From: Escherichia coli
GTDB lineage: Bacteria > Pseudomonadota > Gammaproteobacteria > Enterobacterales > Enterobacteriaceae
Assembly: GCF_003334815.1 (NCBI RefSeq)
Contig: NZ_QOWO01000029.1
DNA: 52,109 nucleotides
Reading direction: 5' to 3' (one strand)
Part shown: one piece after another, positions 27,297-28,553 of the stretch
Layout: each line of letters opens with the position of its first letter
How positions within the stretch are numbered: position 1 is the stretch's first letter
Program-made: the position numbers and the translations under genes
The notes under the pieces: model-generated
What the model saw: the letters and a program-made list of their open reading frames with translations, nothing else
Database searches by the model: none
What the model was told of the DNA's origin: nothing

Positions 27297-27442
27297 CTGA
27301 AGACGCTCTCTGAACGTTACAGGGTGATCAGTGAGATAAGTCTGTTAATTATAAAGTAAACACTGTAAAGCAGAGTGTTTTATTTTTCATTCGCGCTGTG
27401 AATAAATAGATGAAAGTTATAGTAGCTGTCTGTAGTTATATA

Positions 27443-28345
27443 TCAAAAACTCTCATTTAGACGGTCAATAAATCGGGAGAACACCAAATTATTTAAAGGA
27501 GATTTATTATAGGAAATGTAAAGCTTTATTGAAGGTAACGGATGTTCTAGTTTTATCTCTTTTAAGTTAAGAAAGTCACGGTAGAAATTATAAAGTTCAT
27601 AGGGGACTATTCCCAGTAAATCTGTAACTGCAATGCTATTAATGATTGTCAGCAAAGAGGAACCACGAAATGAGATTTTGCGATTCATAAATCTCTCGTC
27701 TATTTCCATTTGAATATCATCAACCCCTGCTGATTTAGATATTAATTGGGTGAACTCTTCTGCCATAATTTGTTCATAAGTGCTATTGTCAGTAATTCGT
27801 GGATGCCTATTACTACAAATTAGAGTATTGCGAATCGTATGCAATGGCATGCAAATGACGGAACGGCTGATCACTGGCATTTGGGTGATCACCAGATCGG
27901 CTTTGCGGTGAACCAACAGTTCTTCAGCATTCTCTGCTGACATGAGGATATCATGGCACTCAATCTCGACAGAGGAATCTTGCCGTAGGCAGCGGATCAG
28001 CATACTATTATTAGAGCAAGAAATGAGCTGAGGGCCGTAGATAATAAAGTTTTTCTTTAGTTCGGACTTATTGACTATATTAATTGTTTGTTCAAGGCCT
28101 CTGAGATTTTTCTCAAGATGGTGATGCAGATTTAACCCTGTTGTCGTCGGCGCGATACCTTTTCCTGAGCGAATGAATAAAGGGTCATTAAATTGCGCAC
28201 GTAAGCGTTGTAACGACTGGCTCACGGCTGATGGGGTGATATATAGTGATTCAGCAGCTTTGCTAATGCTTAAATGCTGGTAAATACACTCAAATATGAC
28301 AAGAAGATTTAAGTCGAACTTTTTCAAGTCGTAGAGATTGGCCAT
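27443..28345 (-). CDS. ybdO: LysR-type transcriptional regulator (300 aa)
   Basis: N-terminal HTH SISKAAESLYITPSAVSQSLQRLRAQFNDPLFIR. The gene and its flanks are markedly AT-rich. Confidence 0.85.
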   Translation of the reverse strand: MANLYDLKKFDLNLLVIFECIYQHLSISKAAESLYITPSAVSQSLQRLRAQFNDPLFIRSGKGIAPTTTGLNLHHHLEKNLRGLEQTINIVNKSELKKNFIIYGPQLISCSNNSMLIRCLRQDSSVEIECHDILMSAENAEELLVHRKADLVITQMPVISRSVICMPLHTIRNTLICSNRHPRITDNSTYEQIMAEEFTQLISKSAGVDDIQMEIDERFMNRKISFRGSSLLTIINSIAVTDLLGIVPYELYNFYRDFLNLKEIKLEHPLPSIKLYISYNKSPLNNLVFSRFIDRLNESF

Positions 28346-28553
28346 ACACTACTCCGGTTATATTTTTCTTCCATGATATATTCACTTAATCAATGTTTTT
28401 TGCGTATATATTTTTATTGATTATGTTTTTTTGCTTAACTCAGGATTAAGTTTTTCTAAAATAGCACAGCCACTTAGGGCAGAGCGAGCAATTCATGCTT
28501 TTTTAGGATGGTTGAAAAGCAGGGATATAGTTCAACCATCCATGAATTACCTT

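Follow-up and report, generated by a model that had tools for sequence, protein, structure and literature searches.

The composition of a gene is often the first thing that sets it apart from its neighbours, and the AT-rich stretch around ybdO in Escherichia coli raises the question of what such a difference says about when and how the gene arrived. We address this question in a window of 52,109 nucleotides of E. coli DNA, the whole stretch that was analysed, in which the AT-rich part at 27297-28553 is bounded exactly by the start codon of ybdN and the stop codon of dsbG. An earlier note on this DNA described the part as horizontally acquired and H-NS-silenced, and took it, together with ybdM and ybdN, to be one insertion between ybdL and dsbG. 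The locus is in our view likely to be a long-resident, functional, H-NS-silenced AT-rich gene with two alleles that have been swapped by recombination, and not a recent insertion.

The 4.1 kb surrounding the locus are 99.9-100% identical to E. coli K-12 records. By this match and by the RefSeq annotation the gene names used earlier are correct, with ybdO annotated today as citR. The genes and spacers are arranged as follows:

24313-25473, plus strand: ybdL (RefSeq annotation).
25474-26103, minus strand: ybdM, encoding a ParB_N/IbrB-like protein, GC 0.468 (RefSeq, domain matches, phrog_2159 at 235 bits).
26076-27296, minus strand: ybdN, encoding a PAPS-reductase/DUF3440 (IbrA-like) protein, GC 0.476, a CitR target (RefSeq, phrog_2302 at 260 bits).
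27297-27442, minus strand: ybdO-ybdN spacer, GC 0.342, upstream of the CitR-repressed ybdNM operon (annotation; PMC9068703).
27443-28345, minus strand: citR (formerly ybdO), encoding a 300-aa LysR-type regulator (NCBIfam CitR equivalog, Pfam, RefSeq).
28346-28553, minus strand: ybdO promoter and leader spacer, GC 0.322 (start site from PMC4720273).
28554-29300, minus strand: dsbG (RefSeq annotation).
29672-30235, plus strand: ahpC (RefSeq annotation).

The GC content of 27297-28553 is 0.371 vs. 0.519 for the whole window, and 0.2% of equal-length stretches are as low; the lowest value of the window at this length, 0.364, falls at 27336-28592. Segment scoring delimits nearly the same DNA:

27261-28591: AT-rich segment, the top-scoring one of the window, 1331 nt, GC 0.365, ending within 40 nt of 27297-28553 on both sides.

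The segment scores 113, compared with at most 23 in 200 shuffles, at a GC threshold of 0.45; scoring against the window mean instead yields a segment of 27 kb, the ent half of the window being richer in GC. GC is 0.342 in the ybdN-ybdO spacer, 0.386 in the ybdO coding sequence and 0.322 in the ybdO-dsbG spacer; the neighbouring genes have 0.476 (ybdN), 0.468 (ybdM), 0.467 (dsbG) and 0.500 (ahpC). Runs of six or more A/T occur at 27.8 per kb in the AT-rich stretch vs. 9.6, and TpA steps at 85 per kb vs. 43. The earlier note had proposed GC and codon-usage analyses, and among the 45 annotated genes ybdO is the minimum for GC, for GC3 (0.399, z = -2.4) and for the local codon index (z = -2.6). 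Its account of an AT-rich stretch around ybdO is confirmed by GC, segment score, codon index and A/T runs alike, and both AT runs that it quoted are present, at 27380-27425 and 28407-28432. ybdM, ybdN and dsbG are mildly low (GC 0.47-0.48, GC3 0.48-0.50 vs. a mean of 0.56), so that the strongly AT-rich part consists of ybdO and its two spacers. The window holds further AT-rich segments at fepE (8701-9956, GC 0.415), in the citC/dpiB divergent promoter region (42385-43153, GC 0.360) and at dcuC-pagP-cspE (46620-48079, GC 0.379).

The product of the gene is a regulator with a defined set of targets. YbdO carries an HTH_1 domain at residues 12-70 (Pfam E-value 1.7e-18) and a LysR_substrate domain at residues 135-299 (1.7e-08), and matches the NCBIfam CitR equivalog NF047710 with 465 bits at a cut-off of 400, which identifies it as the LysR-type regulator CitR. 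The cut-off of CitR is the only one it passes; the next-closest NCBIfam families are YbeF (164 bits) and LeuO (102 bits). CitR is the new name of YbdO, a ChIP-exo peak lies upstream of citR-ybdNM, and deletion of citR strongly raises expression of ybdNM and citCDEF (PMC9068703). In K1 strains YbdO activates kpsM (PMC9141747). The genes leuO and ybeF encode related LysR regulators, those of the nearest NCBIfam families, and in the window ybeF and ybdO flank the cit cluster on opposite sides; they differ from ybdO in that the targets of YbdO are ybdNM, citCDEF and kpsM.

Two features are particular to this strain. Compared with the K-12 record NZ_CP064681, the window has 17 differences over 51.9 kb, of which two are non-synonymous changes in ybdO, S283P (27499) and S254F (27585), absent from every other compared allele. 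S283 lies within the conserved stretch YNKSSLNNL, so that CitR of this strain may be altered. The last 156 nt of the window (51954-52109) diverge from the K-12 reference within ybeF and are 100% identical to one end of the IS4-family element ISVsa5 (IS10-like); ybeF is thus interrupted in this strain, about 50 codons in.

Silencing of ybdO by H-NS is already known and has been dissected experimentally (PMC4720273, PMC9141747), so this part of the earlier description stands on published data. ChAP-seq, the kind of H-NS binding data that the note had pointed to, gives peaks over the upstream and coding region of ybdO in all three strains, K-12, SE11 and SE15; an hns mutant shows raised expression from ybdO-lac fusions, and transcription starts 107 nt upstream of the ATG (PMC4720273). 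H-NS shifts the ybdO promoter in EMSA, ybdO mRNA is 2.2- to 2.4-fold up in K1 without hns, and acid pH induces ybdO via H-NS by relieving repression (Fan et al. 2022, PMC9141747). The published start converts to window position 28452, and by our own reading of the sequence a candidate extended -10, TGCTATTTT, lies at 28458-28466 on the minus strand. Silencing has been mapped to two elements:

28182-28319, minus strand: DRE, H-NS-dependent silencing, +27 to +164, within the ybdO coding sequence (PMC4720273; coordinates converted here).
28521-28595, minus strand: URE, H-NS-dependent silencing, -250 to -176 (PMC4720273; coordinates converted here).

Deletion of either element relieves H-NS repression of ybdO, and an H-NS-independent negative element of K-12 and SE11 also maps to the DRE stretch (PMC4720273). 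The URE extends into the 3' end of dsbG, and its outer edge at 28595 nearly coincides with the end of the AT-rich segment at 28591. The H-NS high-affinity motif, which we take to be TCGATAAATT, is not enriched: there are three matches at two or fewer mismatches, and 14% of equal-length stretches have as many. A generic promoter and terminator scan gave four promoter-like sites vs. 4.9 expected and no terminators, and missed the published promoter.

The arrangement resembles bgl and proU, which have upstream and downstream H-NS silencing elements; ybdO likewise has two cooperating AT-rich elements flanking its promoter, a parallel drawn by the authors themselves (PMC4720273). It differs from bgl and proU in that ybdO is a self-regulating LysR regulator gene, at which bridging is putative. 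According to the published experiments, H-NS binds the AT-rich DNA upstream (about 28521-28595) and in the 5' coding region (about 28182-28319), and both bound elements jointly keep the promoter (start at about 28452) at a basal level. Early stationary phase and acid pH ease the repression; derepressed CitR in turn represses its neighbours ybdNM, affects citCDEF about 10 kb away and, in K1 strains, activates kpsM.

How long the gene has resided at this site can be judged from gene order across the family. One genome per species was searched with DsbG, and the resulting 70 loci were mapped with K-12 proteins. Between the invariant dsbG and ybdL, all four possible presence/absence states of ybdO and ybdNM are seen:

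ybdO, ybdN and ybdM: Escherichia, Citrobacter freundii complex, Salmonella, Klebsiella, Raoultella, Pseudocitrobacter and some Enterobacter.
ybdN and ybdM only: C. amalonaticus group and others.
ybdO only: K. indica, R. terrigena, Leclercia, Silvania and Franconibacter.
Empty, with a dsbG-ybdL gap of 10-45 bp: Kosakonia and Pluralibacter.

At least nine genera have ybdO at this site, and the YbdO tree clusters by genus. In a tree of AhpF, YbdL, DsbG and AhpC, lineages with a partial or empty state branch from among those that have all three genes, for example K. indica within Klebsiella and R. terrigena within Raoultella. Most simply, this distribution suggests that the state with all three genes is ancestral and that losses have occurred repeatedly since; the polarity holds for the sampled family, as no outgroup keeps the ahpC-dsbG-ybdL context (dsbG is elsewhere in Pectobacterium). 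ybdO already stood next to dsbG, with ybdN or ybdL on its other side, before the sampled genera of the Enterobacteriaceae diverged, and an insertion may predate the radiation of the family. Its GC is 8-15 points under that of its neighbours in every sampled genus (0.37-0.39 in Escherichia, 0.36-0.41 in Citrobacter, 0.37 in Salmonella, 0.41-0.46 in Klebsiella and 0.47-0.54 in Raoultella). The comparison of the ybdL-dsbG junction that the earlier note had called for therefore has two sides: empty junctions do exist, but the ybdO site is shared by genera.

ybdO and ybdNM vary independently, which indicates separate cassettes and not one island; this and the conserved gene order contradict the proposal that ybdO had come in with ybdM and ybdN. 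ybdM and ybdN are always present or absent together among the 70 loci. They form an IbrA/IbrB-like pair, in which a PAPS_reduct and DUF3440 protein is encoded beside a ParB_N protein, and the RefSeq name of YbdM is "IbrB-like domain-containing protein". YbdN matches the phage family phrog_2302 (PAPS reductase) over its full length with 260 bits, as YbdM does phrog_2159 (ParB-like) with 235 bits. Because these matches are full-length and empty junctions of 10-45 bp occur, it is plausible that the ybdNM cassette was inserted long ago and possibly came from a phage. A reading of ybdM, ybdN and ybdO as anti-phage defence was set aside, PADLOC giving weak partial matches only (DndC 21.8, BrxP 18.5 and MTase_II 15.8 bits).

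The classical tRNA-linked genomic or pathogenicity island shares with ybdO an atypical composition and a variable presence across genera. The ybdO segment differs from it in its length of 1.3 kb, in its conserved gene order and in being without tRNA, integrase, direct repeats and mobility genes: there is no tRNA in the 16 kb at 20000-36000, the annotation around the locus contains no integrase or mobility gene, and direct or inverted repeats in the flanks are short and imperfect, as by chance.

Where ybdO is absent within E. coli, it has been removed by IS1- or IS5-mediated deletions. IS1 insertions recur in 27150-28650 of other E. coli genomes (H1, H31, H51 and H56; L002 and L006), and deletions bounded by IS1 or ISKpn26 remove ybdO, in L006 together with the ybdN start and in L002 with the whole fepE-ybdN stretch. 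About 100 E. coli genomes have less than 80% single-place coverage of the island. Two loci carry unexpected labels: one titled Chryseobacterium sp. 18061 (L028) has the gene order of Citrobacter sp. 18056 with very similar identities to K-12, and the YbdO encoded on a "Lachnospiraceae" MAG contig (L075) shares 98% identity with that of E. coli. Both records appear to be mislabelled or contaminated.

Within E. coli the island exists in two discrete forms. Among 5,422 genomes, its identity is at least 95% in 3,632 and about 79-81% in 1,789, with a single genome at 90-95%. The type 1 allele is that of K-12, SE11 and O157, and type 2 that of the B2 strains Nissle, ST131 and SE15, the phylogroups being inferred from a few named strains. 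The low-identity class, including Nissle 1917 and ST131, carries the published SE15-specific primer sequence, and K-12 carries the SE11 primer. The difference is confined to one block:

27150-28650, no strand: divergent block between the allele classes, 14-40% divergence, flanks 0-8% (alignment of the classes).

The block comprises the AT-rich segment with about 150 nt of ybdN and about 100 nt of dsbG. Between K-12 and Nissle, ybdO has a dN of 0.067 and a dS of 2.1 (dN/dS 0.03), compared with a dS of 0.09-0.31 in the flanks; at a dS near 2 synonymous sites are saturated, and in an AT-rich gene the Jukes-Cantor correction cannot be relied on, so that only a minimum age of the alleles can be given. 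Without correction, the synonymous difference amounts to 0.71 in ybdO vs. 0.15-0.19 in the flanks. The alleles differ at 35 amino acids, all of them in residues 111-300. The DNA-binding domain and linker (residues 1-110) show no amino-acid change despite synonymous differences of 0.2-1.1 per site, which argues that ybdO is not decaying; as judged from this pattern, it is under strong purifying selection. Elsewhere between strains, ybdR (32815-34053) is missing in the B2-type strain HM50, in which yldA directly follows uspG, and the K-12 ahpC-ahpF spacer (about 30236-30479) has 74 additional nt.

Deep divergence of YbdO is found beyond E. coli. Further Escherichia YbdO protein clusters have identities of about 81%, 78% (E. 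albertii), 79% (E. marmotae) and 76%; E. albertii and E. fergusonii are represented by protein clusters only, the E. albertii contig stopping within dsbG. Additional clusters have identities of 72%, 71%, 66% and 65%. Close Citrobacter species (L011, L013 and L015; L014 and L065) show saturated synonymous divergence in ybdO, 0.70-0.83, with 0.37-0.43 in the flanks, so that deep allele lineages are not confined to Escherichia. In Escherichia sp. E1V33 (L012) the divergence reaches through dsbG, which has a dS of 1.24 to K-12 vs. 0.10-0.49 for ahpC, ahpF, ybdM and ybdN. A literature search of incomplete coverage (ybdO with recombination, alleles or phylogroup) found no description of the two allele classes.

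Comparisons within and between the allele lineages bear on how the two forms arose. In close species pairs that share one lineage, synonymous divergence of ybdO equals that of its flanks: dS is 0.205 between K-12 and Escherichia sp. MOD1-EC7003 (flanks 0.21-0.46) and 0.66 between Nissle and SCPM-O-B-8794 (flanks 0.39-0.74), and the synonymous divergences of ybdO vs. flanks are 0.18 vs. 0.24 and 0.44 vs. 0.38 for the same pairs. Non-synonymous divergence within lineages is 2-4 times that of the flanks. The mutation rate is thus not raised, and only the constraint on the protein is weaker. Across types, the dS of ybdO is at least 1.7 or saturated. An attempt to normalise allele depth by protein distance to Citrobacter was abandoned, since YbdO evolves 2-5 times faster than YbdN and Citrobacter itself has deep allele pairs, which makes the ratio unreliable.

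The allele tree of ybdO disagrees with the tree of its flanks within Escherichia. Quartet-informative sites in ybdO divide 3:105:2, the 105 supporting (K12,EC7003|B2,SCPM), and the first 100 codons of ybdN divide 4:10:0, as in ybdO. The flanking genes support (K12,B2|EC7003,SCPM), with 21:3:7 in ybdL, 10:2:1 in ybdM and 13:6:3 in hcxA. Strain 4621, the one genome examined of a 499-genome class at about 80.7% identity, is a mosaic that switches, with rising coordinates, from type 2 to type 1 at about 28450, so that its breakpoint coincides with the transcription start. The discordant trees, the quartet sites and the mosaic show recombination rather than faster local substitution: alleles are swapped through homologous recombination, and the breakpoints lie in or beside the conserved flanks. 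Horizontal acquisition, as the earlier note had it, thus survives at ybdO as allele exchange, and synteny and trees argue against a recent gain.

The published account of ybdO (PMC4720273, PMC9141747, PMC9068703) concerns the same locus, and promoter, H-NS control and strain divergence are all in print. It differs from ours in attributing the divergence to substitutions eased by H-NS, where we find two discrete deep lineages, shared with other Escherichia and with a normal synonymous rate. ybdO served there as an example of H-NS-linked substitution (Higashi et al. 2016, PMC4720273); recombination was tested across all genes pooled only, and the differences in ybdO were taken as substitutions (PMC4720273). 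That the 20% divergence between the alleles arose in place, through faster substitution in silenced, H-NS-bound DNA once the phylogroups had separated, appears improbable to us. H-NS-bound genes and upstream regions do have higher dN and intergenic substitution, and the ybdO-dsbG intergenic region scores 0.134 vs. 0-0.05 for neighbouring intergenic regions (PMC4720273), in keeping with the excess of non-synonymous change that ybdO has over its flanks even within one allele lineage. A raised rate, however, should have left its mark on synonymous sites within a lineage, which match the flanks; no speed-up on a single branch fits the four-taxon pattern, the distribution of identities is gapped and without intermediates, and the mosaic strain 4621 has a breakpoint. 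Nor do a dN/dS of 0.03 and an unchanged DNA-binding half agree with it.

The remaining alternatives concern where the composition came from. A recent genomic island, in which ybdM, ybdN and ybdO entered the E. coli lineage as one foreign block not yet drifted to the composition of its host, has hardly any probability left. The same gene order in Salmonella, Citrobacter, Klebsiella, Raoultella, Pseudocitrobacter and others, with trees that follow the genera, argues against it, as does the independent variation of ybdO and ybdNM with loss states nested among three-gene lineages. Such an island would account for ybdO as a strong outlier in composition and codon usage, but not for a low GC that persists in every genus; it would account for the phage-family matches of YbdN and YbdM, but these genes are only about 4 GC points under the window mean. 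The empty junctions in Kosakonia and Pluralibacter and the labelling of ybdO as horizontally transferred (PMC4720273) also speak for it, while tRNA, integrase and flanking repeat are all missing from the locus. That ybdO was never foreign, its low GC being due to selection for H-NS control or to AT-biased mutation of a weakly expressed gene, is less easily dismissed, although we consider it somewhat unlikely; it is compatible with allele exchange and differs solely in the origin of the composition. A low GC that recurs at this site in all sampled genera with ybdO and partly tracks that of the host (0.37 in E. coli, 0.41-0.46 in Klebsiella and 0.47-0.54 in Raoultella) is what it would predict, and strong purifying selection on ybdO agrees with it. 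So does the standing of YbeF and LeuO as the NCBIfam families next closest to YbdO; leuO is an AT-rich, H-NS-silenced gene too. The patchy presence of ybdO, with all four states, and its classification as horizontally transferred in the literature (PMC4720273) count against a native origin. On the reading that we prefer, a long-resident and silenced gene with exchanged alleles, the AT-richness may reflect an old foreign origin, selection that keeps H-NS control, or both, and silencing would make the replacement of one allele by the other tolerable.

The AT-richness of ybdO is no mark of recent insertion, and it advises caution against taking composition alone as a sign of recent horizontal transfer. 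For a literature example of faster change under H-NS, two old allele lineages moved by homologous recombination are the better explanation, which bears on the support for that hypothesis. As a reading of a published example, allele replacement is a modest refinement, and the H-NS silencing part adds nothing new. More speculatively, and with a probability that we put as low, the alleles may be a trans-species Escherichia polymorphism held by balancing or niche-specific selection, with the same DNA-binding half acting on the same regulon in response to different signals, and with H-NS silencing letting the alleles swap harmlessly, so that "H-NS-facilitated diversification" here would be allele replacement. 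If true, the textbook example of such diversification would be one of allele replacement, and the 35 differences in the effector half would mean that type 1 and type 2 strains answer different signals through one regulon. The difference between the alleles is also of interest for control of the K1 capsule, in which CitR is implicated.
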